A stretch of 45,580 nt of DNA from an uncultured bacterium (GTDB lineage: Bacteria > Armatimonadota > Zipacnadia > Zipacnadales > UBA5352): contig CBFDBV010000001.1 in the NCBI GenBank assembly GCA_965603135.1, positions 1-45,580 of the forward strand, written 5' to 3'. Shown piece after piece: positions 11,606 through 41,670 of the stretch. The stretch's first letter is position 1; each line of letters begins with the position of its first letter. The notes beneath the pieces were generated by a model, which was given only the letters and a program-made list of their open reading frames with translations, was not told the DNA's origin and did not search any database. Both the position numbers and the translations under genes were made by a program.

Positions 11606-14600
11606 GTGATCGTGTTGCAGAGGGATCGCCTCCTTCTGACACCTGTTGTAGTGATGGCCGCCGCAATCATCCTGGTTACCTGTGCCGACTCCTTTAGTGC
11701 CCCATCGCCGTTGAAGTACCCCTACGCGGGGGGCATTATGCGTACAGGCCCGCACGGCGAGAGGCTTCTGCCCTCCGTCGGGCCAGGGCCCCGGATAGGG
11801 ACGGTGGGGCGTCGGTACCTAGGAATGGAGCGCCCCGACCTGTTCGCGCACCTACGCGCAAAGCAGGGGCCAGGGCCTATCCCGGACTTCCAGCTCACGC
11901 CTACCGCTACCGCCAGTGAGGAACTGTACTCCTTCTCGGCTCCCTACGGTGAGTTGAACCGGATAGTCATCTCCAGCAACGGCGTGGATGACGACGGCGA
12001 TGGGCAGTTCGACCCGGGCGCGACCACGCAGGATGGCACCTTCAACCTCTGGATGCTGCGGGTGGACGGGTCGCAGGTAGCGCAAATCACCAACATGGCG
12101 GGCGATGAGCTGTACCCAGCCTTCAGCCCCGGTGCCCGACTCATAGCCTTCTCCTCCAACACCGGCGGTGTCTGGCAGATCTACACCGTTGAGGTGCTCA
12201 CCGGGGTCGTCACCCAGATAACCTCGAGCCCGGGCAACAAGTACGAGCCCACCTGGTCACCGGATTCCAACTGGCTCGTGTTCAGCGGCGATGAGGCCGG
12301 GAACCGTGACCTCTACATCATCCCCACCGACGGCTCTCTGCTTCCCCAGCAGATAACCACCAATCCTGCCGACGAGACGCAGCCGACGTGGGTGCCAACG
12401 GGCGCTGCCGGCGGCGTGCCGATACTTCTCACGCGCGAGGGCGCGGGCGGTACCGGCAGCCGCGTCTTCGGCATTAGCTCAAACGGCTCGAATGAAACTC
12501 AACTGAGTGACGGCGGCGGCGACCCCCAGGTCAATGACCGGGACCCGGCGTGGCGGCATAACGGCGCGATGATCGCCTTTTCGTCGGACCGGCTGACCGA
12601 GGCCACCGACCTGGACCGGGATTTCAACATCTGGACCATGAGTTCAGCGGGGGAGACCGGGGCGCTGGCTGCCACTCTGCGCAGTAACCTCGACCCCGAG
12701 GACGTGCAGGACGACCGCTATCCCTGCTTCAACCCGGGGCTGAATCCACGGGAGCCGATCCGGGTATTCTTCACCTCCTGGCGGCAGGACGCAGCAGGCG
12801 CTGAGCCGGACATCTGGCGGCTGGAGGCGGCTGACCCGGTGCCGCCGGACCTGATGGACCTGCCCTCGCTGCAGTGGCCGCGCGAAGACTACGACCGCTA
12901 TCGGGCGCCGGGCTCCGAGATAACGGTGTACGCGCAGGTCTTCGACCGTGACAGCGGCGTGGCGCAGGTGGTCGCGGAGTTCAAGGACCCCGACTCGCCC
13001 GAGGACGATAGCCAGGGAATAGATCACAAGCAATTCATTTACACGTCCACCGGGTACTATCGCTCGATCACTAGCATTCCCGGGACGATCGCGTTCGAGG
13101 TGGACTGCGACACTGTGGGTAACGCGCAACTGTTTGACGACGGGGGGCCGGACAGCGGGGACGCCGTGGCTGGCGACGGGATTTTCACGGGCAAGTGGAC
13201 GACGCCGATGTCCCCGAGCGACTACATCATTGACATCCACGTGGCCGACAACGCTGGCAATCAATTCGAGTACGACGACGTCTATGGCCTCACCACCCAG
13301 ATGTTCGAGCCCAAGACCAACGTGCTCTTCGTGGACGACTACTGTGAGGGTCAAGCCTTCCCATGGATGGCCAGCGGAGCGAACAACGACTGTCCCACAC
13401 AGGCCCCGGTGGAGAGCTACTATACTACAAACTGGGGCGACTGCGACGCGTGCTCCAGTACCGCCTACAATACCTTCCGCAGCGGCATACATGGGAACGG
13501 GTGGTTGGGAGAGCCGTACGATATATGGCGGATCATCTGCCGCGGGCCGGTAACCATTACGGACCTCGTCTACTACCTGCCTACCAAGGAAGTGCAGCTT
13601 ACCGTGCCGGATCTGACCGGCACGCGCGAGGTGCGTATCGCAGACCGCGCCGTGGTGTGGGCAGCCCCGCACACCGGCGACACCTGGGTAGCGTCGGGCA
13701 GTCTGGTGGATGCGACGATGCAGGCGACCTTAGCGAACTTCCTCGACCGCGGCGGCCGGCTCATGACCTCAGGCCAAGACATAGGCTTTGCCCTCACACT
13801 TGACGGTACTGTCCAGAACAACTTCTTCGCCAACTATCTGCACGCCAGCTATATCACCGACTCTGTTATCGCACCTAGTAACGGCGGAAGCTGTCCCTGG
13901 TGTTTTTTCGGTCCGTCTCTTGTTAGTGCATCACATCCCGAAATCCAGGGTGTTGCCGACGACCCAGTGGCTCGGCACCCAGGCTGGAACCCATATCACG
14001 ATCCCCCCCTCCTGTTCGCAAACGGGTGGTGGATACACGAACGTGTCTGTTATCCCCAAGATTCCGCCCTCTGTACGGTGTGGCCGGACGGCATTGACGC
14101 TATAGGCGGAGCCACGGTCACTCACAACTACGTTTCTACGGCAGCCGAGGTGGCTGGACTGCGCTACGCGGACCCCGCCGGCGGGTACCGCGTCGTGTAC
14201 TTCGCGTGGGGCTTTGAGCAAATGCATCGTGTGCACCAAGTAGAGACTAACTGGCCTTACGTATGCCGGAACTATCGCGCCAAGCTCATGCACAATACCC
14301 TCTGCTGGCTGCGCACCGGTGGCTTCCAGGGCCGGGTTCTGTCAATAAGCGACGGGAACCAACCTGTCGACGACCCGACACCGATCGTGCAAGTGCGCCA
14401 GGGCAACACCGTCATCGCGGCGGTGCAGTGCGAGGAGGACGGCCGTTACGTTATGGGTGGGCTGCCGCCTGGGGTCTACAGTATGAGTGCCCACCGGCCC
14501 GGGTTTGAGATTGACCACCGGGACGCCGACCGGACGCATGGCGGGCTCAATTATCCGGTAGTTGACTTCGCCATTGTCCGAGCCGAGCCGGGGGCGATCC

Positions 14601-16810
14601 GGGGCACGGTGACCTCGGCGGCGACCGGAGAGCCGCTGGCAGCGGTGGAGGTGTGCGCCTACCAGGTGCCCGTGCCTGAGCCGGAAGACGGCGATGGCAA
14701 CGGCGGGACCGCTTCCGCATCCGCGCCCGCACAGGATGGCGACGGCGATGGCGAACTGGGCGACTTGATAGACTGCACGACGACTGCGGCGGACGGGACC
14801 TATATGATCGGCAATGTCCCGCCCGGCGATGTGGATGTGGTTGCCGATGGGACCGATATCGGCTACGGGACCGAGACGCAGAGGACGACCGTGACCAGCG
14901 GCAACACCAACACCGTTGACTTCGCCCTGGAGGCGGCGCCGGGCGTCATTGTCGCGACCGTGACCGACGAGGATGGCAATCCGATCCAGGATGCGCTTGT
15001 GGAGGTGCTGTTGGGCGCTATTGTGGCGGCCAGCGGCACTACCGATGAGAACGGCGAGGCGCGCATCGAGGTCGAGCCAGGCAGCTACTCGGTGGAGGCG
15101 GAGGCCGCCGGCTACGAGCGGTCCGCGGGCCAGGGAGTTGCGGTCGCCGCGGGCGAAGAGGTTGACATAGCCATCACTCTTCAGCAGCAAGCGGACGGTG
15201 GGCTGTCGGGGCTGATCACGCGGGCAGTGAGCGGCGAGGCGGTCGGAGGCATCACTGTGGAGCTGCTGAGCATCAGCGGGGACACGATCCTGGCCAGCAC
15301 CCAGACCAGCGCCACCGTGACCGATCCGCCCGGAGCCGCGCTCCCGTACAACTACGAGTTCGTAGATGCGAACGGTCAACCGAATGTGCCCACGGGGCAG
15401 GTCATCGTGAGGCCGGACCCGGTGGGCTTCAGCGCCACCCCGCTGCAGCAGATCGTGCGCGTCGAGACCGACCAGGTGACGGATAGCGTGAACTTTACGC
15501 TGAGCAGCATTCACACGTTCCCGGCCGTGCTTCAGTTGATGTCGCTGCCGTTCGACTATCCGGCCACGGACCCGGCGACGGTGCTGGGCGTGCCGGCCAA
15601 CGACCTGAAGATGGCGGCCTTTGAGCCGATTGACGGGCGCTATCACGTGTATCCATCCGCTCCGGCGGACCGGTTCCGCTTGGGCGTAGGCTACTGGCTC
15701 AAGCTCGATGAGATACGCGAACTCTCGCAGCAGGGAATAGAGGCCGGGGACACCTGCGACATCGCGCTGCGGCTCGGGCAGTCGGGCTGGAACATTGTGG
15801 GGGACTTCTTCAGGGCGACCGTTGACTTCTACGCGCTCAACATCGTGGACGGGAACGGCGTGGAGCGCTCGATGCAAGAGGCGCTGGCGGCCGGCCTGGT
15901 GCGCAGCCCGCTGTTTGCGTATGTGCTCGGGGGCTACCAGACGTCGGCGGTGCTGGAGCCGTACGTGGGCTACTGGCTGAAGGTGGCCGACGACGTCTGG
16001 CTGATCGGTGACCGAACCACGGTCACGCTCGCGGCGGGCGAGGCGCCGGCGCGGGCGGCGGTGCTAGCGCCGGAGGACGGATGGCTGCTGCCGCTGGTGG
16101 TGAGCGCCGGGGGCATGCAGGACGCCGCCACCTTCATCGGCTGCGCGGCCAGCGCCAGCGATGGCTTCGATGTGGGCCTGGATGTGCCCAAGCCACCGCC
16201 GCCGGACATGGGGCCGAATGTGTACGCGGCCATCGAACACGGGGACTGGGGCAGCGAAAGTGGAGCCTACGCGGTTGACGTGCGCTCTGCTGCGACGGAT
16301 AATGCGACGTGGCGCCTCAGGATCTCGTGCGAGGGCGCGCAGACGGTGAGTGTGCGCTGGCCCGATATGTCAGGGGTGCCGACAGAGGCGCGGCCCGTCC
16401 TGAGCGACCCGGCAGCAGGCAGGCTGGTGTATATGCGAACCGCGCAGGGCTACCAGTTCAAGCCGCGCGGGGGCAGCCGCATCCTCGAGATCAGGCTGGG
16501 CGGGGATGCGCAGCCGGGGATGGTCGTTTCGGGGCTGGCGACGAGCGCAGCCGGGAACGGGACCGAGATATCATACACACTCTCCTCGGACGCCGAGGTC
16601 GAGGTTACGGTGCTCAACATCGCGGGGCGGTTGGTGCGGACACTGGTCAGTTCAGCCGCCCAGCCGGCCGGCGCCCAGCGCGTCGTGTGGAACGGCGCGA
16701 ACAACGCCGGGGTCAGGGCGCCGAGCGGGATGTATCTGATCGTGGTGAGGGCAAGAGCAGAAGACGGCCAGGAGGCGCAAGCCATCGGGCCGCTGACGGT
16801 AGGACCCTAG
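11606..16810 (+). CDS. Giant secreted/lipoprotein-like multidomain protein (protein A): TolB/PD40 beta-propeller + Ig-like + Cys-rich domain + CarboxypepD_reg repeats + shared C-terminal module
   Basis: Signal/lipobox-like N-terminus (AAAIILVTC|ADS). PD40 repeats (YPAFSPGARLIAFSS, EPTWSPDSNWLVFSG, DPAWRHNGAMIAFSSDR). Ig-like segment with DDGGPDSGDAVAGDGIFTG. Carboxypeptidase-regulatory-like repeats (DGRYVMGGLPPGVYSMSAHRPGFE, ADGTYMIGNVPPGDVDV, ENGEARIEVEPGSYSVEAEAAGYE). C-terminal FlgD-Ig/T9SS-CTD-like sandwich (EVEVTVLNIAGRLVRTL...GMYLIVVRARAEDGQ). GTG start; alternatives exist at 11612 and 11615. Confidence 0.85.
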   Translation: MIVLQRDRLLLTPVVVMAAAIILVTCADSFSAPSPLKYPYAGGIMRTGPHGERLLPSVGPGPRIGTVGRRYLGMERPDLFAHLRAKQGPGPIPDFQLTPTATASEELYSFSAPYGELNRIVISSNGVDDDGDGQFDPGATTQDGTFNLWMLRVDGSQVAQITNMAGDELYPAFSPGARLIAFSSNTGGVWQIYTVEVLTGVVTQITSSPGNKYEPTWSPDSNWLVFSGDEAGNRDLYIIPTDGSLLPQQITTNPADETQPTWVPTGAAGGVPILLTREGAGGTGSRVFGISSNGSNETQLSDGGGDPQVNDRDPAWRHNGAMIAFSSDRLTEATDLDRDFNIWTMSSAGETGALAATLRSNLDPEDVQDDRYPCFNPGLNPREPIRVFFTSWRQDAAGAEPDIWRLEAADPVPPDLMDLPSLQWPREDYDRYRAPGSEITVYAQVFDRDSGVAQVVAEFKDPDSPEDDSQGIDHKQFIYTSTGYYRSITSIPGTIAFEVDCDTVGNAQLFDDGGPDSGDAVAGDGIFTGKWTTPMSPSDYIIDIHVADNAGNQFEYDDVYGLTTQMFEPKTNVLFVDDYCEGQAFPWMASGANNDCPTQAPVESYYTTNWGDCDACSSTAYNTFRSGIHGNGWLGEPYDIWRIICRGPVTITDLVYYLPTKEVQLTVPDLTGTREVRIADRAVVWAAPHTGDTWVASGSLVDATMQATLANFLDRGGRLMTSGQDIGFALTLDGTVQNNFFANYLHASYITDSVIAPSNGGSCPWCFFGPSLVSASHPEIQGVADDPVARHPGWNPYHDPPLLFANGWWIHERVCYPQDSALCTVWPDGIDAIGGATVTHNYVSTAAEVAGLRYADPAGGYRVVYFAWGFEQMHRVHQVETNWPYVCRNYRAKLMHNTLCWLRTGGFQGRVLSISDGNQPVDDPTPIVQVRQGNTVIAAVQCEEDGRYVMGGLPPGVYSMSAHRPGFEIDHRDADRTHGGLNYPVVDFAIVRAEPGAIRGTVTSAATGEPLAAVEVCAYQVPVPEPEDGDGNGGTASASAPAQDGDGDGELGDLIDCTTTAADGTYMIGNVPPGDVDVVADGTDIGYGTETQRTTVTSGNTNTVDFALEAAPGVIVATVTDEDGNPIQDALVEVLLGAIVAASGTTDENGEARIEVEPGSYSVEAEAAGYERSAGQGVAVAAGEEVDIAITLQQQADGGLSGLITRAVSGEAVGGITVELLSISGDTILASTQTSATVTDPPGAALPYNYEFVDANGQPNVPTGQVIVRPDPVGFSATPLQQIVRVETDQVTDSVNFTLSSIHTFPAVLQLMSLPFDYPATDPATVLGVPANDLKMAAFEPIDGRYHVYPSAPADRFRLGVGYWLKLDEIRELSQQGIEAGDTCDIALRLGQSGWNIVGDFFRATVDFYALNIVDGNGVERSMQEALAAGLVRSPLFAYVLGGYQTSAVLEPYVGYWLKVADDVWLIGDRTTVTLAAGEAPARAAVLAPEDGWLLPLVVSAGGMQDAATFIGCAASASDGFDVGLDVPKPPPPDMGPNVYAAIEHGDWGSESGAYAVDVRSAATDNATWRLRISCEGAQTVSVRWPDMSGVPTEARPVLSDPAAGRLVYMRTAQGYQFKPRGGSRILEIRLGGDAQPGMVVSGLATSAAGNGTEISYTLSSDAEVEVTVLNIAGRLVRTLVSSAAQPAGAQRVVWNGANNAGVRAPSGMYLIVVRARAEDGQEAQAIGPLTVGP

Positions 16811-16818
16811 CAGAGGAT

Positions 16819-16858
16819 GGGGATGGGGACAGTCACCTAAGGTGACTGTCCCCCCCTC
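16819..16858 (+). repeat. Palindromic element family 2, copy 1 (13-bp perfect stem); possible terminator after protein A
   Basis: GGGGAT-GGGGACAGTCACC-TAA-GGTGACTGTCCCC-CCTCC. Stem arms at 16825-16837 and 16841-16853. No T-tract follows. Confidence 0.75.
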
Positions 16859-16895
16859 CGCAACCAGGCGTGTGTCGGGAGGGAGAACTGCGAGC

Positions 16896-18815
16896 ATGCA
16901 CAGTCTACGTGGTAGTCTGATATGGCGATATGTCGCGATCTACGTCGCAGCTTCGATGGCGGTACCGTACGCAGTAGTCGGCTTCCCGGCAAATGCAGGG
17001 GCACAGCCGCAGCCGGTGGTCAGGACGGTGACCTGCATTGTGCTGCCTTTGCTGGACCCGACGGGCTTGGATACCGAGGTGCTCAGCGAGAAGGCCACCG
17101 ACGCCATGGCTCTGGCCCTCGAGGACTCGCGCGAGTTCGTCGTCACCTCCAAGCGCGACCTGGAGCGGGAGCTGGGGAACCTGGGCATGACGACGCCGCT
17201 CTCCGTCGAGGAGCAGGTGCGGCTCGCCAAGCGTCTCGACGTGGAGAAGGTCCTGACCGGACGGGTGACGGCGCTGGCGGTAGACGGGCGCACCGGGGAG
17301 TGTGCCGTCAAACTGCAAGTGAGAGTGCTGGATACTGCCACGGTGGAGTACCTCCAGGGGACGGAGGTGGCGATCAGGACGAAGGTAGTACCGGGATGGA
17401 CCGGGGACGAGGGCCAGGTCATCAACGAGGCACTGCGGCAGGCCGCTGAGACGGTCACCATGCAGATGCTGGGAGGCCGGATAACGACGGGCTACGTCAC
17501 CTCGGTGAACGATGTCGGGGTCGCGATCATCAATGTGGGCGCGGGGGACGGCGTGCTAGCGGGGACAGAGATGGTGCTGATGCGGCCCACCTATCAGAAG
17601 GACCTGGACGTGATGACAACGGTGAAGGTGGGTACGGTGGCCGTCGGCAAAGTGGCGTCGGATATGTGCTACGCCAGGCCCGTCGCCGGCGGCAGGGCAA
17701 AGGTGGGCGACAGGGCGTACGCCCTCTACAAGCCGCCGGTGCGGTTGGCGCTTGCGCGGCGGTCCAAAGGTATCAGCAAGGCCGCGACGTTGGTGGCGGC
17801 TCTGGGACTGGTGTTCGCGCTGGTGGAGGTGGGGTCAGGCGAGCATGTCGGCGGTGCGCCCGAAGGGGTCTGCGCGAATCTCTATCAGCAGTCGCCCGGC
17901 GATGAGGCGGTCATCAGGATACACGTGCCAAATCAGTGGGTGCCGCTGACTGAGCAGATACATGGGTGGCTGTTCTTCCGTAAAGAAGGGACGCCGAGCC
18001 TGGCACTGTCGCCCGAGAACCTGGTCGGGGTGGTGGACGAGTCGCGGCTGCCGGGGAACGTGTGGGACGACTATCCTGAGTCGGTGGCTGACCTTCAGAT
18101 AGCCTACGGGTTCATCTACTACAACGAGGAGGGGGAGCAGGAGGACGGGGATGTTGACATCGTCTACAATCATCCCCCGCTGGAGGAAGGGTCAACCTAC
18201 TACTACCGAGTGCGCCGGATCACGGAGCCGCAGTACCCGGCAGGCAGCGGCGCGCCGATCACCGCACAACAAGTGGGCACCCAGCAGCAGGTGTTCGTGG
18301 AGCCCTCCATAGACGTGGACCCGTACGACGCTCTGAGCGAAGGCAGCGCCCCCACCAACCCGGTGACGTACTTCAACCCGACGATACTGCAGTCACCTGA
18401 CGACGGAGCCCAGAACCAGTCTACGACCTCCATCACCTTCACCTGGGACGGGGCTCGGGGGGCGAACGAGTACCTCCTGCAAGTGTTCCCGGACGACGAC
18501 CCGGACTGCCTGCGCAACGCGGTCCATCAGAGTCCGGTGATGCGGCAGGGCACGGCTGGGACGATGCACTGGACCATAGACGCGAACTTCACGGCGAACA
18601 GCAGGTTCTACTGGAGAGTGGGCGCGCGGCGCTCGGGCGAGGCGGAGCCGGTGAACGGGTTCGGCAACCAGACGGGGTGGCTCTTCAGCTCGACCCGGAG
18701 CTTCAGGACGGCCGTTGCGCCACCGCCGCCGCCCGGCACGAGTTCAGCGAGCGGGCAGGCGGGCGTCACCGTGCGGCACGGCTTCTTCACACTGCCGCGT
18801 TACGAACATGAGTGA
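16896..18815 (+). CDS. Bitopic envelope protein B1: signal/anchor + LpoB/CsgG/TolB_N-like alpha/beta domain + beta-barrel-like domain + TM helix + two FN3/Ig-like domains
   Basis: ATG 16896 sits after GGGAGGGA; the ORF is open from 16842, inside the palindrome. N-terminal hydrophobic stretch IWRYVAIYVAASMAVPYAVVGFPANAGAQ. LpoB/TolB_N-like pattern (CIVLPLLDPTG...ATDAMALALEDSREFVVTSKRDLEREL...VEKVLTGRV). Internal TM RRSKGISKAATLVAALGLVFALVEVG. FN3-like signatures YYYRVRRI and FTWDGARGANEYLLQV...FYWRVGA. Confidence 0.7.
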   Translation: MHSLRGSLIWRYVAIYVAASMAVPYAVVGFPANAGAQPQPVVRTVTCIVLPLLDPTGLDTEVLSEKATDAMALALEDSREFVVTSKRDLERELGNLGMTTPLSVEEQVRLAKRLDVEKVLTGRVTALAVDGRTGECAVKLQVRVLDTATVEYLQGTEVAIRTKVVPGWTGDEGQVINEALRQAAETVTMQMLGGRITTGYVTSVNDVGVAIINVGAGDGVLAGTEMVLMRPTYQKDLDVMTTVKVGTVAVGKVASDMCYARPVAGGRAKVGDRAYALYKPPVRLALARRSKGISKAATLVAALGLVFALVEVGSGEHVGGAPEGVCANLYQQSPGDEAVIRIHVPNQWVPLTEQIHGWLFFRKEGTPSLALSPENLVGVVDESRLPGNVWDDYPESVADLQIAYGFIYYNEEGEQEDGDVDIVYNHPPLEEGSTYYYRVRRITEPQYPAGSGAPITAQQVGTQQQVFVEPSIDVDPYDALSEGSAPTNPVTYFNPTILQSPDDGAQNQSTTSITFTWDGARGANEYLLQVFPDDDPDCLRNAVHQSPVMRQGTAGTMHWTIDANFTANSRFYWRVGARRSGEAEPVNGFGNQTGWLFSSTRSFRTAVAPPPPPGTSSASGQAGVTVRHGFFTLPRYEHE

Positions 18816-18880
18816 GACGCCGAGCCCGCCGACGGGGATGTTGCGGAGGTGCGGCAACCGGGCGCGAGAGCAGGGCTTAT

Positions 18881-20209
18881 ATGGCGAGGGGAGTGGTGAG
18901 AGCAGCAGGTGCGGGGGGCCGGGCAGTGCTGGCTGCCGCGGTGCTGATGCTCACGCTGGGGCCGGAGGCGACGGGCAGCACTCATGAGTGGACGGTGGCC
19001 GCCTATCTGAGCGGCGATGGGGACCTGCGGGCGGCGGCCCACCGCTATCTGGACATGGTGGCGAGGGGGACAGACCGGCCCGGGTGGGCGGCGGCTGTGC
19101 AGCTCGATGAGACGGACGCCGAAGGGCACTGCTTGGCCAGCCGGCACCTGTGGCTGTGGGAGGACGGACAGAGGAAGCACGTAAGCGAGAGCGTTCCCGG
19201 CGACGAGGCGGGAGTGAACATGGGGGCGCGGGAGACGCTTGGCGAGTTCCTGGGATGGGTCAGAGAGCAGGCGCCGGCGCAACGATATGCTCTGATCATC
19301 ATGGGGCACGGGACCGGCCTGGCGGCGCCGGGAGGCGGTCTGGAGGGGGGCCTGGCGAACTCGGGCGTGGCGCTGGACACCAGTGCGGGAGGCGATTGTC
19401 TCAGCGCCGTGGAGCTGGCGGGCGGCATTGAGGATGGCTTTGGGGAGGGGGAGGCGCCCGGCCTGGATGCGTTGTTTCTGGACTGCTGTTACGGCGGCTG
19501 CCTGGAGGTAGCGTACGAGTTGCGGGATGCTGCGGGGTACCTCACAGGCGCGCCGGGCGAGATGCCTAACCCGGGCCTGCCCTGGGATACGATCTTGAGC
19601 AGCGTGAGCGGCGACGGCGAGGTGGAGGGCAGAGAACTGGTGGAGACCTGCCTGCGGGTGGCCCAGGAGCAGGACGGCGAGCAGACCGAGCGGGTGAGCC
19701 TGACGGCGATAGACCTGAGCGGGATGTCGAGCGCGCGGCAGAGCCTCCAGGAGTTCGCCACAGCCGCCGCCGGGCGGATGGCGGAGATAGCGCCGGCGGT
19801 GACCCTTGCGCATAGCCGTTCGGCGACCTGGGGCAGTCAGCGCGAGTTGTGCGACGCAGGCGTCCTGCTGGAGTCGCTGGCCGAACGCCTGGCGGATGAC
19901 GGTCTCGCCAGGGCCGCGCGGGCCGCAGCAGAGACAGTGAAGGCGAGCGTTGTCGGCAGAGCCGGCGAGCAGGGCGAGCAAGGCGTCGGGATAGGGATCT
20001 TCTTTCCGGGCGCGCTGAGCGGTGTGCCGGAGAGCTATGAGCCGCAGCGATGCAGCTTTGCGAGGGACAGCGGCTGGGGGGCGTTCTTGAGGGCCTATCT
20101 GCATAGATTGCGGGACTTGATGGAGCGGAAGGCAGAACGCGAAGATACGGACGGCAGCGGGGCGACAGTGCAGCCCCCGGTGGTGAAGGCGGTAGTGCAG
20201 GAAACCTAG
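18881..20209 (+). CDS. Clostripain-like cysteine peptidase (MEROPS C11, clan CD), secreted
   Basis: C11 hallmarks: WTVAAYLSGDGDLRAAAHRYLDMV, catalytic His context YALIIMGHGTG, catalytic Cys context LDALFLDCCYGGCLEVAYEL. Signal-like MARGVVRAAGAGGRAVLAAAVLMLTLGPEA. The ORF is open from GTG 18812, which overlaps the B1 stop, so the start is uncertain. Confidence 0.75.
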   Translation: MARGVVRAAGAGGRAVLAAAVLMLTLGPEATGSTHEWTVAAYLSGDGDLRAAAHRYLDMVARGTDRPGWAAAVQLDETDAEGHCLASRHLWLWEDGQRKHVSESVPGDEAGVNMGARETLGEFLGWVREQAPAQRYALIIMGHGTGLAAPGGGLEGGLANSGVALDTSAGGDCLSAVELAGGIEDGFGEGEAPGLDALFLDCCYGGCLEVAYELRDAAGYLTGAPGEMPNPGLPWDTILSSVSGDGEVEGRELVETCLRVAQEQDGEQTERVSLTAIDLSGMSSARQSLQEFATAAAGRMAEIAPAVTLAHSRSATWGSQRELCDAGVLLESLAERLADDGLARAARAAAETVKASVVGRAGEQGEQGVGIGIFFPGALSGVPESYEPQRCSFARDSGWGAFLRAYLHRLRDLMERKAEREDTDGSGATVQPPVVKAVVQET

Positions 20210-20232
20210 TTGCAGCAGGCGCTCCAAGGCTC

Positions 20233-20272
20233 GGGGGCGGGACAGTGACCCAAGGTGACTGTCCCCATCCCC
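20233..20272 (-). repeat. Palindromic element family 2, copy 2 (inverted relative to copy 1)
   Basis: Minus strand reads GGGGAT-GGGGACAGTCACC-TTG-GGTCACTGTCCC-GCCCCC. The 19-nt 5' part GGGGATGGGGACAGTCACC is identical to copy 1. The stem has one mismatch. Confidence 0.75.
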
Positions 20273-20289
20273 GAGAAGGAGGAGTCAAA

Positions 20290-23200
20290 GTGAGTCGGCT
20301 TCGTCACCGATATGTCTCCCCTTATCTCGTTGCACTGGCACTGATCCTGTCGGCGACGTCAGGGGTGGGAACGGGGTGGGCGGCCCAGGGCACCGCGCTG
20401 GAGGACCTGGCCGGGCCGTTGCGGACGCTGGCGGTGGCAGCAGCACGCGGGGAGGTGCTGCCCTTCGCGTTCCCGCTGCCTGCCAAGGGGCCCGAGGACA
20501 TGGTGCTGGTGGTGGTGGAGTTCCGCAGCGAGGCAGCCGCGGCCAACACCTCGCTGGCGCCCTACGGGGGACAGGTGCAGATACGGCGTGACCGGCGCGT
20601 GCAGGCTTTGCTGCCGGCGAGCAGCCTGTCGGCAGTGGCGGGCCTGCCGCAAGTATCGCAGGTGCGGCCGCCCCGGTATATGTACCCGCTCCAGGGCTAC
20701 GGGGCGAACTACAGCGAAGGAGTGCAGTTGTGCGGAGCGACCGCATACCACGCGGCAGGGATGTTCGGCGCCGGTGCGGACGTGGCAATACTTGACATGG
20801 GCTTTGCCGATTACGCCAACGCAGAGATACCGCCGGGCGTGAGTACCATCTCGTTCGCCTCCGGCGGGACAATGGGCACGGACTACCACGGCACTGCGTG
20901 CGCCGAGATCGTCGCGGACATGGCGCCGATGTGCAATATGACGCTCATCGCGGTTGACACGGATATGTCCGTGGAGATGGCTACGGAGTACGTGGTCAAC
21001 CAGGGCTTCGATGTCAGCTTGATGTCGCTGGGCAGCTTTGGGGGGCCCTACGACGGCACGCACCCGGAGTCGCAGGAGGTCAACCGCGCGCGCGCGGCTG
21101 GGCTGTTCTGGGTGAACTCGGCCGGGAACCACGCCGAGCGCCACTACCAGGGGCAGTTCACTGATGCAGATGGCGACGGCCTGAACGAGTTCGGCGGCGG
21201 CGACGAGACGATTGATGTCTACCTGTTCCCCGGCGTCTTCCAGGCGTTCCTTAGCTGGTATCAGACCACTCCGACCGGACTGACCAACCACGACTTCGAC
21301 CTGGTGCTGGTTGACGGGTCCGATGCGGAGATCGCGCGCTCGGGCTACAGCCAGAACGGGGACGATCCACCGGCGGACGCGCTGCTGGCCACGATAGCTG
21401 TGGAGGGCCAGTACGGTCTGAAAATCGAGTACTATGCAGGACCCGCCAACCCGGGGGACTTCTTCCAGCTCTTCCTGCCGGACTATGACGTGGAGACCCA
21501 GCATCAGGTCCCCGAGTCGAGCTTGCTCATCCCGGCCGAAGCGACGGGCGCCTACGCGGTAGGCGCCACGCGCGGGGCGGTAGACCCTAACGCGACCGTG
21601 ATGGTGCCCATAGACGGGTTGGAGCCTTTCAGCTCCCAGGGGCCGGTGGCGGGCCATCCGGAGATCATCAAGCCCAACATAACCGCGCCGGATGCGGTGA
21701 CAACGAGCCTAGCAGCGCAGGACCCGGGCCTCTCTCCGTTCTACGGTACGTCAGCAGCGGCACCGCACGTGGCGGGTGCGGCCGCGCTGGTGTTCTCTGA
21801 GGACGCGCTGAGAACCGCCGATGAGGTCGAGAAGATACTCAATGACCTGGCGTTGGACCTGCCCGGGGAGCCGGAGCCCGATCCCAACAATCAGTACGGT
21901 GAGGGTCGTCTGCGGCTGCGGGCGGGCGTGGACAGCCGGGCGCCGACGATAACGATCGCGTTCCCGCGCCACGGCGAGACCATCACAACCGCGACGCCGA
22001 CGCTCACCGCCTTCATCCAGGACGATGGCAGCGGCGTTGACCCGACCACGATCAGGATAGAGCTGAATCAGATAGAGGTCTACAATGGCAGCAGCCCCGG
22101 CCAGCAGCCCGACCCCTACGATGCGGCCACGGGCAGGCTGTCATGGCCGGACCCCGATGGTGACTGGTGGAACGCGAACGGCCCACTGGCCCACACGAAC
22201 CACATGATCATCATAGACTGCTCGGACTACTCGGCGAACGAGGCGACGAGCGCAGTCACGAACTTCCGCGTGGCCTCGGCGACCATCCCCGGAGGCGTGC
22301 ATATCGTATCGTTCCCGTACCGCGATCTGGCGGTAACCGACCCGAGCGTGGTTCTGGGCACGCCGCTGGCGGACCTGGCGATGGTGCGCTGGTGGCCGGA
22401 GGACGAGGGTAAGCTCAAGTATCACTTCTATCCCGACACGCGGGCGAGCCTGGTGCCGCCGGATTGCACGCAGGCGAATATGGACGATCGCACGGTGCCG
22501 TATCCGCCGGCAGGGCTGGCGTATTTCTTGAGCCTGCCGCAGACGGCGGTGCTGGCGATAGAGGGGATGACCCTGGACGATATCCCCAGCACGCACATCA
22601 GGCTCTATTACGGGCAACATCGGCCTCGCGGCTGGAATCTCATCGGCAATCCCTATGAGCAGCCTGTGAACTGGGGCACCGTGCAGTTCGTGACCGATGG
22701 CGTGCGCCAGGACCTGCGCGAGGCGATTGATGCGGGGGTGACGGAGGGGGTGCTGTTCGACTACGTGGGCCCGAGCGGCGGACAGGGCGGCTACTACAGC
22801 TTCACGACGGACCCGACGGCCGGGGCGCTGGAGCCGATGAAGGGCTACTGGCTGCACGTGAACCAGGACACGCGGGTTCTCGTCTACGGCGGCGGCATGG
22901 GCACTGCGGCACAGCCGACGAGTGCGCAGCCCCAGGCCGCAGCCGATGGCTGGCTGGTTAGACTGTGCGTGCGCGCGGGCGGGTATCAAGACCCGAGCAA
23001 CTACGTCGGCGTCAGCTCGGCCGCCAGCGCGGGATATGACCCGGCCCACGATGTGCCGGAGCCGCCGGCGTTGGTGGGGACGCTCCAGATGTATATGCCG
23101 CGACCGGGCTGGGGGAGGCACGCGGGGCGCTACGCCAAGGACGTAAGAGGAACAACGGACAGCGGTCAGTGGGATGTCGAGGTGCTCTGCGAACTGGCTG

Positions 23201-23685
23201 ACAGCGAGGTCGAGATCACCTGGCCGCAGTTGAACGCCCAGGTGCCCGGCGAGGTGAAGCTGGTTCTGGAGGACCTGGACGGCGGCAGGCAGGTGTATAT
23301 GCGGACTGCCTCGGCATATCGCTTCCGCAGCGGGCCTGAGGGGTGTGTGCGCCACCTGAGAATCCGGGCCGAGACGGGGAGCGACCGGATGCTGACGCTG
23401 AGCGGCGTGGCGGCGGCGAGGGCGGCCGGAGGCGGGGCGGTGTTCACCTACGCGGTCTCGAGGACGGCGGAGGTGACGGTCGAGGTGAGGAACATCGCGG
23501 GCCGGCTGGTGAAGATGTTCACGCCGCGACGGGTTGAGGGTGGCGGGCAGCAGAGCCTGGTCTGGAACGGGATGAGCCAGTTCGGCAGCCCGGTTCCGGC
23601 GGGCCGCTACCTGGTGCGGCTCACGGCGCGAGCGGAAGATGGGCAGACCGTGCAGGGGATCCGGCCGTTCGAGATTATGCGATAA
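20290..23685 (+). CDS. Secreted subtilisin-family serine protease (S8) carrying the shared C-terminal module
   Basis: GTG 20290 sits 7 nt after AAGGAGGAG. Signal peptide YLVALALILSATSGVGTGWAAQG. Catalytic triad contexts GADVAILDMGF (Asp), DYHGTACAEIVADMAP (His), FYGTSAAAPHVAGAAALV (Ser), with oxyanion VNSAGNHA. Ig-like insert APTITIAFPRHGETITTATPTLTAFIQDDGSGVDPTTIRIEL. C-terminal module 22285-23682. Confidence 0.9.
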   Translation: MSRLRHRYVSPYLVALALILSATSGVGTGWAAQGTALEDLAGPLRTLAVAAARGEVLPFAFPLPAKGPEDMVLVVVEFRSEAAAANTSLAPYGGQVQIRRDRRVQALLPASSLSAVAGLPQVSQVRPPRYMYPLQGYGANYSEGVQLCGATAYHAAGMFGAGADVAILDMGFADYANAEIPPGVSTISFASGGTMGTDYHGTACAEIVADMAPMCNMTLIAVDTDMSVEMATEYVVNQGFDVSLMSLGSFGGPYDGTHPESQEVNRARAAGLFWVNSAGNHAERHYQGQFTDADGDGLNEFGGGDETIDVYLFPGVFQAFLSWYQTTPTGLTNHDFDLVLVDGSDAEIARSGYSQNGDDPPADALLATIAVEGQYGLKIEYYAGPANPGDFFQLFLPDYDVETQHQVPESSLLIPAEATGAYAVGATRGAVDPNATVMVPIDGLEPFSSQGPVAGHPEIIKPNITAPDAVTTSLAAQDPGLSPFYGTSAAAPHVAGAAALVFSEDALRTADEVEKILNDLALDLPGEPEPDPNNQYGEGRLRLRAGVDSRAPTITIAFPRHGETITTATPTLTAFIQDDGSGVDPTTIRIELNQIEVYNGSSPGQQPDPYDAATGRLSWPDPDGDWWNANGPLAHTNHMIIIDCSDYSANEATSAVTNFRVASATIPGGVHIVSFPYRDLAVTDPSVVLGTPLADLAMVRWWPEDEGKLKYHFYPDTRASLVPPDCTQANMDDRTVPYPPAGLAYFLSLPQTAVLAIEGMTLDDIPSTHIRLYYGQHRPRGWNLIGNPYEQPVNWGTVQFVTDGVRQDLREAIDAGVTEGVLFDYVGPSGGQGGYYSFTTDPTAGALEPMKGYWLHVNQDTRVLVYGGGMGTAAQPTSAQPQAAADGWLVRLCVRAGGYQDPSNYVGVSSAASAGYDPAHDVPEPPALVGTLQMYMPRPGWGRHAGRYAKDVRGTTDSGQWDVEVLCELADSEVEITWPQLNAQVPGEVKLVLEDLDGGRQVYMRTASAYRFRSGPEGCVRHLRIRAETGSDRMLTLSGVAAARAAGGGAVFTYAVSRTAEVTVEVRNIAGRLVKMFTPRRVEGGGQQSLVWNGMSQFGSPVPAGRYLVRLTARAEDGQTVQGIRPFEIMR

Positions 23686-23716
23686 TCGCCTGGGTACGAG
23701 AGGAGCTGACTGCCCG

Positions 23717-26578
23717 GTGGCATGGCAAGGCAATCACTGGAGCAGAATTGCAGCAAAGCAGTTGGCGCTGTCGGGATGGGTGTTCTGCGCACTGCTGCTT
23801 GCGTCGCACGTCGCCCAGGCGCAGACCTATGCAATCGAGGTTATGCATCCAGCGGGCCTCACGCGGCTGCTCGTGGCCGACCCCAGGCTGATCCAGGTCG
23901 GCACCACCGGCACCCCTCCCCGGCCGACCTATGTCTATCGGCCGGCGGGGCGCTTCCAACTGTGGACCGGCTCCACCGTAGCGGCCGGTGGTAGCCCTCT
24001 GGTAGCGGGCGACGAGAACCTGCCGATCGCCAGCGCGGCGTACCTAGGCGGCACCACCTGGAACTTGCTGGACTTCACCTCCAAGCTGACGATCTCGGTG
24101 GACTACCAGCAAGGAACCGGCACCGGTGGCCTCTTCGACATCCACGACCTGATGTACGGGCAGTCGGCGACGACGGACCCCGCGGCCCTGCCCGTGTGGT
24201 GGCAACAGGCGCCGGTGGCCGGCGCGCGCGACGTATCGGGAATCGCCTACCTTGACCCGACCGGGGCGGACCCGGTGGCGGGAGCGCCGATGCTGCGCGT
24301 CCGGCACACCTTCGCCCTGGTGCACGATGCGGTGATGCTGGAGTACATCGTCTATAACGACACCGCGGCCTCACACGCCGTCGGACTGCGAGTGATGATT
24401 GACGCCCGGTTCGGCGGAGCCTCCGATCGGGACGGCACCTACATCGTGCTGGATGATGGCTCGGTGATCTCGGCCGAAGCGAAGATGCCTGACCCGAACT
24501 ACCCGGGTCAGGTTATGCCCAAGACCTGGGTGAGCTACGACGACGTGGACAACCCGCTGGTGGCCGTGAGGGGGACGGTGGATGCGGCGGAAGTGCACAA
24601 CGCGAGCATAGCGACCGAGAGTGCCGGCCTGCCCGACGAGATTGGCTTCGGGCAGTACCGGAACATCGGGATGACGAATCAGTTCGATTTCGTGCCTAAC
24701 CCTGGCGCCGCCCTGACCGGCGAGGACTGGGCCTACGCGGTGAAGTGGGAGGAGCGCCAGCTCGGGCCCGGTCAGAGCCGCCGCTATGTCACGTACTATG
24801 GTCTGGGCGCGGCCGCGGTTGACTACGATCCGCCGTACGCGCTGGCGGCGTATGCGCCGGCGAAGCTGAATGTGGTGGCCGCGGATGACCCCTCGACGCC
24901 GCAGGTGGAGCAGTACTACCTGACGGATCAGAGTGGGCAGTCGCCCTTCCCGCTGACGGCGCTACTGGACAACTTCGGGGCGGGGCCGATCATCAATGCG
25001 GGCGTGCGCATCAGTCTCCCCTCCGGGCTCGAGCTTTCGCCGGACACGCAACCGCGCACCATCAACCTGGGCGTGATAAACCGAAATCAGGCGCCGCTGC
25101 CGCAGGCGCAGTGGATGGTGCGGGCCACGGCCCTGCGTCCGGGGTGGGCCGAGGTGAAGTTCACCGGCCCCATGGGCAAGGTCGTGAGCAGGACGATCAG
25201 CATCCCGGCGATCCCGGTCATATCGCCGCTGCCCTCGCTGGTGGGCCTGGAGATGCTCTCGGTGCCGTATGAGTTTGTCAACTCGGATGCGTCAAACGTC
25301 TTTGGCAGCCTGACGGACTCGGTATTCCCGGGCGGGCCGGTGGCGCTGTGGCGGTGGAACCCGACCAGTCAGGATTACAGGGCGTATCCGGATCCGTGGA
25401 CCGGGAACATCGCGCCGGGCAGGGGCTACTGGCTGCTGAACCAGAACCGGGAGAGCGTGGTGCTGCCGCCGACGGCGCAGCCGGTCCCGGCCAACCAGAC
25501 CTACGGGGTGCCGCTGGAGGCCGGCTGGAACCAGATCGGCAATCCCTTCGTGGTGCCGCTGGGCTTCTACAAGATACGGGTGATCGGGCCGCAGGGCGTT
25601 GAGTGGTCCATGGCCGATGCGATCACGCGAGGCCTGCTGCTGCCCGTGCTGTACGCGTATGACGCGGAAGCGAACGAGTACACCTGGGCGACGTCAATGC
25701 AGCAGACGGAGGTTGTGCCCTACCACGGGTACTGGCTGCTGAGCTACGCGGACATAACGCTGCTGTTCCCGCCGCCGACGTTGTTTGGGCCGGCGTCAGT
25801 GGCTGAAGCGACCGTGCCCGGGGATGAGGACGACGGGTGGCGGGTGGGCCTGGAGGTGGCGGCAGCGGGTCAGAGCCGAACGGGACGCAGCTTCGGCGTC
25901 TCTGCGAGCGCGGAGAACGGCGTGGACCTTGCCGATGTCCCAAGCCCACCGTCCGTGTTCAGGCCAGGCCCGACGCTGGACGCGTTCTTCACGATGGGCG
26001 CAGACTTCAGCGGCGCTCCCTACCTGGTGGATGTCAAGGCAGATGGCGGAGGCGAGCGGACCTGGGCCTTCACGGTCGTGGCCGAGGCCGCGGGCGCGCC
26101 GGTGACAATCAGGTGGCCCTCCCTGTCCGCGGAGCTGCCCAGGGATCTGGTGGCGACGCTGGAGGATGTGAGCGCGGGACGCAGGACGTACATGCGCACG
26201 AGCGGCGCGTACACGTACAACCCCGGCGTGGGCGGCGCGCGGCAGTTCAGGGTCCTGGTGCGGCCCCGAGCGGGGGCAACCCTTGGGCTGACGGGCGTGA
26301 CCTGCGCGCAGGTGGACGTGGGTGGGGTCGCGGTCGCTTACACGCTGAACGCCGAGGCGAAGGTTGACGTGGAGGTGCGCAACATCGCGGGCCGAATCGT
26401 GCGCCGGGTGGCCGTGGACAAGGCCTGCGCAGCCGGACAGAACACAGTGGTGTGGTCCGGCGTGGACGAGCGCGGGATGAGGGTGCCCGCGGGGCTGTAT
26501 GTGGTGCAGGTGACGGCGCGGTCGCCTGATACGGGCGAGAGTATGAGCGTGATTCGCACCGCGCAAGTGTGGCGATAG
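23717..26578 (+). CDS. Secreted protein of unknown function (protein D) carrying the shared C-terminal module
   Basis: GTG 23717 sits about 10 nt after GAGAGGAG. The ORF is open from 23639 but that would overlap the S8 gene. Signal peptide LALSGWVFCALLLASHVAQA|Q. In the ~500-aa N-terminal region I recognise no family. C-terminal module 25232-26575 (GYWLL, GWNQIGNPF, HGYWLL, IRWPSL, YMRTSGAYTY, VEVRNIAGRIVRR). Confidence 0.75.
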   Translation: MAWQGNHWSRIAAKQLALSGWVFCALLLASHVAQAQTYAIEVMHPAGLTRLLVADPRLIQVGTTGTPPRPTYVYRPAGRFQLWTGSTVAAGGSPLVAGDENLPIASAAYLGGTTWNLLDFTSKLTISVDYQQGTGTGGLFDIHDLMYGQSATTDPAALPVWWQQAPVAGARDVSGIAYLDPTGADPVAGAPMLRVRHTFALVHDAVMLEYIVYNDTAASHAVGLRVMIDARFGGASDRDGTYIVLDDGSVISAEAKMPDPNYPGQVMPKTWVSYDDVDNPLVAVRGTVDAAEVHNASIATESAGLPDEIGFGQYRNIGMTNQFDFVPNPGAALTGEDWAYAVKWEERQLGPGQSRRYVTYYGLGAAAVDYDPPYALAAYAPAKLNVVAADDPSTPQVEQYYLTDQSGQSPFPLTALLDNFGAGPIINAGVRISLPSGLELSPDTQPRTINLGVINRNQAPLPQAQWMVRATALRPGWAEVKFTGPMGKVVSRTISIPAIPVISPLPSLVGLEMLSVPYEFVNSDASNVFGSLTDSVFPGGPVALWRWNPTSQDYRAYPDPWTGNIAPGRGYWLLNQNRESVVLPPTAQPVPANQTYGVPLEAGWNQIGNPFVVPLGFYKIRVIGPQGVEWSMADAITRGLLLPVLYAYDAEANEYTWATSMQQTEVVPYHGYWLLSYADITLLFPPPTLFGPASVAEATVPGDEDDGWRVGLEVAAAGQSRTGRSFGVSASAENGVDLADVPSPPSVFRPGPTLDAFFTMGADFSGAPYLVDVKADGGGERTWAFTVVAEAAGAPVTIRWPSLSAELPRDLVATLEDVSAGRRTYMRTSGAYTYNPGVGGARQFRVLVRPRAGATLGLTGVTCAQVDVGGVAVAYTLNAEAKVDVEVRNIAGRIVRRVAVDKACAAGQNTVVWSGVDERGMRVPAGLYVVQVTARSPDTGESMSVIRTAQVWR

Positions 26579-26651: not shown

Positions 26652-27719
26652 ATGACAGCGATCAGATCGAGCAAGCTGGCGCGCCCGGTGAGCATCCTGT
26701 TGATGGCCGCGATGATGGCCCTGTCACTGCCGGTCGGGTTTGTGACGCCGGCAGAGGCACAAGCGGTGGCAGGGATGCTCCTGCTTTTCCCGGTGTTGGA
26801 CAGAAGTGATGGCGGCCATCCGGACGCTGCGGACCGGATGACCTCGGCGCTGCAAATGGCGATCGCGGAGGCCACGGGCCTGCGCTGCGCGGAGTTCTCG
26901 GCCAGCTCCCCGATGGTCAGGCGCGCGGTGAAGGAGGGGCAGATCCGCTCGGTGGACGTCGAGGCTGAGGTGGCCGATCCCGTCAAGGCCATCCAGATCG
27001 GCTACGCGCTTGGAGTGGACGAGGTGTGCCTGGCGATGATAACCTCCATCACGGTTCAGGAGGAGCCTCGGCGTTTCGAGGTGGTGCTGGCCGGGCAGAC
27101 CTACGACGTAGCCTCGAATGTTGACCTGGAGAGCAGGCAGGTGGTGGAGAAGCCGGTGGTGAGCAGCAGCTTCGGGGTTTCGGGCCAGAGTCTGGAGAGA
27201 GCGGGCTACACGGGCAGCGACAGCCCGCTGCTGCACGAGGCGATCAAGAAGGCGGCCTGGAAGGCCGCCCAGGTGCTCGCCGGCAAGCCGGCGGCAGAGA
27301 TGGCGGGGGTCGCGCGCAAGCGATCCTCCAACACCTGGAAGTGGATCATCGCGGGCTTGATCGTGGCAGGCCTGGCAATGGCGGCGCATGACTCCACCAG
27401 CCACCCGGCCACCGGCTACTCGCCGGACGCGGTGGCCCCGGTGCCGCTGTCAATGGACATTGAGCCCACGAGCATCCGACTGCACTGGCAGGCCCCGCCG
27501 GGAACATCGCTGGTGGTGCTGCGCTACCAGATACAGCGCGCGGTGAATGGCACCGCGTGGAACTTCATTGACAACGGCAACGTTGACGCGAACGACACCA
27601 GCTTCGCGGACTTCAACGTCACCGGTAGCAACACCTACGCCTACCGCATCCGGGCCCAGTACACCACGTCCGGGCCCTCGGCGTGGGCGAACTTCGATCA
27701 GGTGACCTTCCCGGATTGA
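26652..27719 (+). CDS. Bitopic envelope protein B2 (shorter paralogue-like counterpart of B1): signal + LpoB/TolB_N-like domain + TM + one FN3 domain
   Basis: Signal VSILLMAAMMALSLPVGFVTPAEA|QA. Alpha/beta domain (LLLFPVLDRSDG...MTSALQMAIAEATGLRCAEF...VDEVCLAMITSI). TM ARKRSSNTWKWIIAGLIVAGLAMAA. FN3 (IRLHWQAPPGTSLVVLRYQIQRAVNGTAW...YAYRIRAQYTTSGPSAW). Confidence 0.7.
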   Translation: MTAIRSSKLARPVSILLMAAMMALSLPVGFVTPAEAQAVAGMLLLFPVLDRSDGGHPDAADRMTSALQMAIAEATGLRCAEFSASSPMVRRAVKEGQIRSVDVEAEVADPVKAIQIGYALGVDEVCLAMITSITVQEEPRRFEVVLAGQTYDVASNVDLESRQVVEKPVVSSSFGVSGQSLERAGYTGSDSPLLHEAIKKAAWKAAQVLAGKPAAEMAGVARKRSSNTWKWIIAGLIVAGLAMAAHDSTSHPATGYSPDAVAPVPLSMDIEPTSIRLHWQAPPGTSLVVLRYQIQRAVNGTAWNFIDNGNVDANDTSFADFNVTGSNTYAYRIRAQYTTSGPSAWANFDQVTFPD

Positions 27720-27738
27720 GGTGTTGGACCGAGGCAGA

Positions 27739-41460: not shown

Positions 41461-41670
41461 GTGCCTGACGGCGGGCAAGGGGCATCCCCCTTCGCCAAGG
41501 CTACGGGGGATGAAAGGGGGAACGGCACGCGCTGCACAGCCGTGGGATCGGGTGATGCGGAGGCCGCCCAGTATCCCACGGGCGGCGCGGATGGGGCCCG
41601 ACCGCGAGAGTGAGACGTGGAGGTGTGCCAAGGAGTTGCTGCGAATACTGGCGCGCCGGGGAGAGAGGCG

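Follow-up and report, generated by a model that had tools for sequence, protein, structure and literature searches.

The window analysed here, a stretch of 45,580 nt (contig CBFDBV010000001.1, positions 1 to 45,580) from an uncultured bacterium of the Zipacnadia (phylum Armatimonadota), encodes three proteins, A, S8 and D, that end in the same cassette of four consecutive domains (P1a, P1b, P2 and P3). The cassette is real, ancient and widely distributed; its first three domains lie outside Pfam-A and NCBIfam, and the last one is a FlgD_ig domain that resembles the C-terminal domain (CTD) found on type IX secretion system (T9SS) cargo. What is new is the conserved, undescribed three-domain block ahead of the CTD, as CTD-bearing surface proteins are a kind already known; we found no description of the module, or of the gene cluster in which it lies, in the literature. 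Quite possibly the cassette serves docking and sorting at the cell envelope.

The shared module and its four domains

Three collinear copies of a tripartite C-terminal module had been predicted at the ends of A, S8 and D, at roughly 30% identity as judged by eye, and this was borne out. The collinear alignment covers the C-terminal 433 (A), 466 (S8) and 448 (D) residues and runs up to the stop codons, with 31-36% identity and BLASTP E values of 4e-72 to 2e-53 (A/S8: 35.7%, 3.8e-72; A/D: 32.5%, 5.6e-57; S8/D: 31.2%, 1.6e-53; all over the full module length). All motif strings quoted in the original prediction, including D[VL]PxPP and V[ET]VxNIAGR[LI]V, were found at collinear positions in the three copies, and a hidden Markov model (HMM) of the three modules matched the six-frame translation of the window at these three places only (Table 1). 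Part 1 (E 3e-11 to 6e-22), Part 2 (E 8e-21 to 7e-33) and Part 3 (E 3e-21 to 5e-24) are each significant by themselves in pairwise comparisons between the copies, and the similarity is thus not limited to the last ~85 amino acids (aa). The N-terminal regions of the carriers are unrelated to each other (best BLASTP E 0.7), as had been claimed, and each carrier has a single N-terminal hydrophobic segment, which is consistent with the export that was predicted for all three.

That the similarity arose by chance, from the composition of a high-GC genome (the G+C content of the window is 63-69%) or through a recent local duplication without wider meaning, is virtually excluded. The E values reach down to 4e-72 with every part independently significant, homologues are numerous in other genomes and phyla, the copies are closer to their own orthologues than to each other, and there is, as predicted, no repeat at the DNA level, just weak matches of 26-101 nt at the conserved motifs.

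An AlphaFold2 (AF2) model and a profile-based database search had been proposed as checks together with the original prediction; the family proved widespread and the model, based on an alignment of 94 sequences, confident (predicted local distance difference test score, pLDDT, 95.4; predicted template modelling score, pTM, 0.88). A first model, from an alignment of nine sequences, was discarded because Part 1 was poor (pLDDT 64). The model is all-beta with short helices, and its confidence falls only at residues 171-180 and 331-340, the domain linkers. The domain limits in copy A, as taken from the model, are residues 1-182 for P1, 188-335 for P2 (a beta domain of ~148 aa) and 338-433 for P3. 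The two halves of Part 1, ~90 aa each, are homologous (hhalign probability 96%, E 4e-9), 'G-l-x-m-i-S-x-P-Y ... G-x-G-Y-W-L' being superposed on 'G-W-N-x-I-G-N-P-F ... G-Y-W-L'. Part 1 is therefore a tandem duplication and the module consists of four domains, P1a, P1b, P2 and P3; between P1, P2 and P3 no relationship was detectable with hhalign. The duplication, the wide distribution, the seven-gene cluster and the evolutionary separability of the parts go beyond what had been noted originally.

When the whole model was compared to the PDB with Foldseek, no specific fold could be assigned (query-normalised TM <=0.20). The matches were generic tandem immunoglobulin (Ig)/fn3 arrays only, the top one being 6xi3, an adhesin repeat of four Ig domains in tandem (437 aligned columns). 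The C5a peptidase ScpA, Bacillus Vpr and 6xi3 are like the module in that they have strings of beta-sandwiches behind an S8 catalytic domain or in adhesins, and such matches to stalks would suit a passive role, in which P1-P2 are Ig-like spacers that keep the payload off the membrane and are conserved because of folding constraints alone. We consider that improbable: spacers usually vary in number and order, whereas the order P1a-P1b-P2-P3 is fixed across phyla, near-invariant motifs are kept at 20-25% overall identity, and P1 stays as the terminal domain once P2 and P3 are lost. Furthermore, the stalks of ScpA, Vpr and 6xi3 show no sequence relationship to the module (TM 0.17-0.20), and only the module combines a fixed order of four domains with reuse on unrelated payloads. 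Against BFVD there was one real match, A0A8D9C8P8, over the whole module (E 1e-14, query-normalised TM 0.52). The entry, filed as 'putative hemin binding protein' of 'uncultured marine phage', most likely represents this same cassette, from a contig of a marine bacterium that was wrongly entered as viral.

The statement that Parts 1 and 2 do not correspond to a named domain held in profile searches as well as in the whole-model comparison with the PDB. We scanned 78 module segments (the 3 window copies and 75 homologues from other genomes of several phyla) against Pfam-A and NCBIfam. For Parts 1-2, the window copies had nothing significant in Pfam-A (best Golvesin_C, E 0.024) and the 78 segments gave scattered noise only; in NCBIfam there was nothing significant either (best choice_anch_R, E 6e-4, in 3 members), and profiles of 3 and of 78 sequences found nothing better than E 0.2 among PDB sequences (hmmsearch). 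The database name of the relatives is 'hypothetical protein'. Judged by these profile searches, the P1 unit (~90 aa) and P2 are two domain types outside Pfam-A and NCBIfam. The NCBIfam 'choice-of-anchor' family NF041539 (choice_anch_R) resembles them in being a conserved domain immediately upstream of alternative C-terminal sorting signals, and weak sub-threshold matches to it occur in 3 of the 78 members and in the S8 copy, but these reach 12.5 bits against a cutoff of 30 and hence the module is not a member.

The conserved Trp, Tyr and Gly positions (GYW, GWN, DGW), and a location between payload and CTD in many payload combinations, would also fit a substrate- or glycan-binding module of the lectin or carbohydrate-binding module (CBM) type, which targets enzymes to a polymer like the CBMs that precede the CTD in many Bacteroidota enzymes. 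To this we assign a low probability, as the Pfam matches of the 78 members include no cohesin, lectin or CBM family, not even a weak carbohydrate-binding or lectin one, and the top 50 whole-model Foldseek matches include no cohesin or lectin. Moreover, the observed payloads are peptidases, propellers and Ig repeats and not carbohydrate-active enzymes, and the cluster lies among housekeeping genes, adjoining membrane proteins.

Table 1. Carrier proteins, module domains and cluster partners in the window
Feature	Position	Strand	Remarks
ORF A	11606..16810	+	1734 aa; signal-like N-terminus, TolB/Tricorn-like PD40 propeller, CarboxypepD_reg repeats, then module
A module P1a (SLPF ... GVGYWL)	15509..15778	+	AF2 limits, hhalign, motifs
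A module P1b (GWNIVGDFF ... VGYWL), homologue of P1a	15779..16054	+	hhalign, AF2 limits
A module P2 (DGW ... DVPKPP ... VRWP ... YMRT)	16070..16513	+	AF2 limits, motifs
A module P3, FlgD_ig resembling T9SS CTD	16520..16807	+	Pfam, Foldseek
ORF S8	20245..23685	+	1146 aa; signal-like N-terminus, subtilase domain with DMGF, HGT and GTSAAAP motifs, then module
S8 module P1	22285..22923	+	P1a 22285-22614, P1b 22615-22923
S8 module P2	22939..23385	+	
S8 module P3 (FlgD_ig)	23392..23682	+	Pfam
ORF D	23639..26578	+	979 aa as listed; N-terminal ~530 aa without known-family match, then module
D module P1	25232..25810	+	P1a 25232-25507, P1b 25508-25810
D module P2	25826..26275	+	
D module P3 (FlgD_ig)	26282..26575	+	Pfam
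orf657	16842..18815	+	N-terminal hydrophobic segment, second at aa ~314, C-terminal fn3-like region; syntenic across Armatimonadota
C11 (clostripain-family, clan CD) cysteine peptidase	18812..20209	+	GHG and DCC motifs, N-terminal hydrophobic segment
fn3_355	26652..27719	+	355 aa; C-terminal fn3 domain; weak paralogue of orf657 N-terminal ~200 aa
Big1_695	27721..29808	+	695 aa; invasin-type Big_1 at aa ~67-165; ~500 further aa without family match

With the listed ATG, open reading frame (ORF) D would overlap the last 47 nt of ORF S8 (23639-23685). The signal peptide of D begins only near codon 36, and in the orthologue P0006 the protein starts directly before its own signal peptide; the true start of ORF D is probably some tens of codons downstream, directly before the signal peptide, without a real overlap with S8. 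A search of PDB sequences with the N-terminal region of ORF D gave no match.

Distribution of the family and history of the triad

A genome scan (one genome per species, taxonomy as labelled in the records) returned 78 loci, 44 of them from Armatimonadota (Zipacnadia, Armatimonadia, Chthonomonadales, Fimbriimonadales, Capsulimonadaceae and Fervidibacter). Some 24 are from Bacteroidota or allied lineages of the Fibrobacterota-Chlorobiota-Bacteroidota (FCB) group (Cytophagales, Ignavibacteria, Calditrichota, Marinimicrobia, Latescibacterota, Fidelibacterota, Krumholzibacteriota, Eisenbacteria, WOR-3 and Balneolales), and the rest are unclassified or oddly binned. The closest locus belongs to a Candidatus Zipacnadia metagenome-assembled genome (MAG; 62% identity). 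The three window proteins themselves were not found in a collection of 5.8 billion sequences; with closest relatives at 62-68% identity, this collection has no close representative of the source genome.

The idea of a rare module was rejected: a word-indexed search found 6-8 relatives, which was a sensitivity artefact, as exhaustive HMMER and the genome scan found many. The best 150 matches among 1.84 billion representatives have E values below 1e-77, and in ~140 of these 150 the full module lies flush at the C-terminus. The HMMER profile of 573 positions unintentionally included Part 3. FlgD_ig repeats therefore inflate the totals of the exhaustive search (17,623 at E<=1e-3; 1,720 at E<=1e-30), which do not represent the family size.

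Among 124 module-bearing ORFs in 79 loci the architecture P1-P2-P3 dominates (91), followed by P1 only (16), P1-P2 (13) and P1-P2-P1 (2). The P1-P2 cases in Bacteroidota have a tail of ~100 aa that the P3 HMM missed, and in most of the 75 ORFs with complete P1 and P2 the tail behind P2 measures ~90-110 aa. The tail of the FCB copies matches Por_Secre_tail, FlgD_ig or CHU_C, and their payloads are BNR/sortilin-type propellers, Big_5, fn3 or unassigned. The two P1-P2-P1 proteins, which lack a CTD, are encoded in unclassified MAGs (L049, 8528-11398; L069, 1-1395), and each has a protein of ~1050 aa nearby that resembles the C-terminal end of Big1_695 in its last ~100 residues (E ~1e-27).

The copies in Armatimonadota fall into classes that correspond to the three carriers. 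We compared P1+P2 copies from 55 classified carriers and found that the best match belonged to the same carrier class in all 55, that the same class in another genome outscored the same-genome paralogue in 43 of 43 cases, and that all 18 A-type copies formed one pure neighbour-joining clade. Because the copies group by carrier class and not by genome, the triplication is older than the divergence of the Armatimonadota classes, and concerted evolution has not taken place. Some lineages have shortened the module. The A, S8 and D orthologues of L023, L075 and L076, plus those of L019, L045 and L050, have P1 only and stop right behind P1b with a short Pro/Gly-rich tail (contigs of 0.7-4 Mb included), and those of L026 end after P2. 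The parts are thus separable, and P1 was never lost from the triad.

Such a history could also be read as that of a hetero-oligomerisation module, in which the cassettes bind one another, mainly via P1, so that A, the protease and D would form a fixed 1:1:1 complex with envelope anchoring as a secondary matter. The triplication is ancient and strictly retained in class-specific clades, the three genes are always co-located, the triad persists on P1 alone in L075 and L076, and the high pTM of the model suggests that the cassette may be a rigid body with conserved surfaces. However, outside Armatimonadota the cassette is found on single proteins or pairs with other payloads, and some loci have more than three module-bearing ORFs, e.g. 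four at locus L004. We therefore regard a fixed complex of this kind as possible, though unlikely.

The last domain and a proposed role at the cell envelope

Part 3 had been described as a sandwich of the FlgD-Ig/T9SS-CTD type, and this description stands: PF13860 (FlgD_ig) is passed in all copies (A 45.0, S8 31.3 and D 40.9 bits; gathering threshold 27). The domain is well modelled (pLDDT ~95 over residues 340-433) and superposes on the FlgD chains 7eha_C, 7bhq_B and 3osv (Foldseek probability 1.0, target-normalised TM 0.30-0.54). FlgD, however, is the flagellar hook cap protein, whereas P3 is a C-terminal appendage on peptidases and propeller proteins, and no flagellar genes occur near the module carriers in the window.

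The likeness to type A CTDs of T9SS cargo goes further. P3 is a beta-sandwich of ~90 aa with a G-x-Y motif, and it has the location of a type A sorting domain, at the extreme C-terminus of multidomain proteins whose N-terminal hydrophobic segment is predicted to be of the Sec type. As in type A cargo such as the gingipain RgpB, a flexible linker and an Ig-like domain precede it. In Bacteroidota cargo the CTD is cleaved within the flexible linker ahead of it (PMC11969387), a position that would correspond to the low-confidence P2-P3 linker (331-340) of our model. In addition, Por_Secre_tail (PF18962) is the last domain of homologous cassettes from Cytophagales, Ignavibacteria, Latescibacterota and others, for instance of the Cytophagales copy of L039 (29.8 bits, cutoff 27). 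In the window copies, in contrast, PF18962 was absent at E<=0.1, as were, to judge from the sequences, the usual PNP motif and the Lys-rich end of type A CTDs, and the conserved P1a-P1b-P2 block of ~335 aa upstream of P3 has no described counterpart in these systems. The 'long CTD' of Prevotella cargo was considered as the same cassette and rejected, since it is an ordinary 7-strand CTD. By analogy, the closest functional counterpart of the cassette would be the C-terminal part of T9SS type A cargo, i.e. an Ig-like domain plus CTD. Its scores below the model thresholds, and a host phylum that is not known for T9SS machinery, keep us from filing it among the T9SS sorting domains.

We infer, tentatively, that the module, with its four beta-rich domains in a row at the C-terminus, is a cassette for docking and sorting at the cell envelope, because it is nearly always C-terminal, has a fixed domain order, is reused on unrelated exported payloads, carries T9SS tails in the FCB relatives and is found in Armatimonadota on carriers that are co-located with membrane proteins. 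The carriers would be exported by Sec, P3 would act as a sorting or attachment signal where such machinery exists, and P1-P2 would serve as a compact pedestal near the membrane, by which payloads of very different kinds dock on a shared envelope partner. P1 may be the essential docking element, as it alone survives where P2 and P3 have been lost.

Several observations weigh against this proposal. The window P3 copies score 17.7, 11.5 and 14.2 bits with TIGR04183, below its cutoff of 23, although they pass PF13860. The latter is a general Ig-like family that is found on Vpr of Bacillus too, and this Vpr, from an organism without T9SS, is one of the strong fold matches, which implies that P3 need not be a secretion signal. 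Lineages without P3 indicate that the triad can work without it. The FCB copies of the cassette occur singly, without the partners found in the Armatimonadota cluster, and any partner of P1-P2 should then either differ between phyla or be widespread, as a common outer-membrane protein or a glycan of the envelope would be. To our knowledge no T9SS has been reported from Armatimonadota, and none of its machinery (SprA/Sov, PorV, PorU, GldK-N) is encoded within the 45.6-kb window. The Fimbriimonas genome paper lists only the type II and type IV secretion systems, the twin-arginine translocation (Tat) system and Sec (PMC4072686).

The gene cluster in Armatimonadota

The window is an ordinary piece of bacterial chromosome (accA/D, polA, rpsA, coaE, uvrB, uvrC, aconitase, RNase G). 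It also encodes a protein of 1113 aa that is unrelated to the module (41617-44958; DUF4962 and a heparinase II/III C-terminal domain), likely a polysaccharide lyase. Seven genes of the same direction (A, orf657, C11, S8, D, fn3_355 and Big1_695) separate coaE from uvrB, and all seven proteins have an N-terminal hydrophobic segment. Loci from Zipacnadia, Armatimonadia, Chthonomonadales and Fimbriimonadales show the same gene order, rpsA-coaE-A-orf657-(C11)-protease-D-fn3-Big1-uvrB, in which the flanking rpsA-coaE and uvrB are often shared as well. The order of block and housekeeping flanks that is seen at 10610-31953 in the window is kept in L001, L002, L005, L006, L011, L016, L043 and L079, and such stability across several Armatimonadota classes is unusual for surface-protein genes.

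Distant classes likewise have a subtilase as the middle carrier, and one lineage has an M6 metallopeptidase there: at 5310-8534 of L004 (Armatimonadetes MAG CG06_land) an M6 immune-inhibitor-A-type domain replaces the subtilase on the same cassette. The middle slot thus seems to require a protease and not S8 specifically. The C11 peptidase is confined to clusters of the Armatimonadia/Zipacnadia type, where it is located between module carriers; PorU, the T9SS sortase, also belongs to clan CD.

For orf657 and fn3_355 no family or PDB match was found. Weak paralogy links the two across the first ~200 aa (BLASTP E 0.002; iterated HMMs also cross-match), and a second hydrophobic stretch in the middle of the protein, scored in orf657 and seen by eye in fn3_355, gives an odd topology for fn3 proteins. 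Big1_695 matches PDB entry 1cwv with its Big_1 domain (E 2e-19) and had no PDB sequence match beyond it. The protein ends in ...GGLTTF, and the conservation of the terminal Phe in 11 orthologues suggests that it may be an outer-membrane beta-barrel.

The three carriers, whose payloads in Armatimonadota are a propeller/CarboxypepD_reg protein, a subtilase or M6 peptidase, and the unassigned domain of D, share one operon-like cluster throughout the phylum with two bitopic membrane proteins and this suspected outer-membrane protein. They may well therefore be subunits or clients of a single assembly at the surface or envelope. A bolder and quite improbable version is that the seven genes constitute a self-contained, Armatimonadota-specific surface-display system, in which the CTD and the P1-P2 pedestal would be handled by a dedicated outer-membrane protein (the Phe-ending Big_1 protein as a member) and the two bitopic membrane proteins, with PorU-like processing by C11 in some classes. 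If true, the T9SS attachment complex would have a minimal analogue or relative in this cluster, in a phylum that lies on the Terrabacteria side and not in the FCB group.

The mechanism of the cassette remains a proposal, and the main yield is a set of new domain families and an entry into the biology of the Armatimonadota envelope. Two large families, the ~90-aa P1 unit and P2, have been defined that are absent from the copies of Pfam-A and NCBIfam that we searched, and they would improve the annotation of large hypothetical proteins in MAGs of Armatimonadota, Bacteroidota, Ignavibacteria, Calditrichota, Marinimicrobia, Latescibacterota and others. They also raise the question what role a T9SS-type C-terminal cassette has in a phylum that is not known for T9SS, the more so as the part that was never lost is the element upstream of the CTD and not the CTD itself. 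With one conserved cluster, and cultured hosts in Chthonomonas and Fimbriimonas, the cassette provides a testable handle on the almost unstudied cell envelope of the Armatimonadota.

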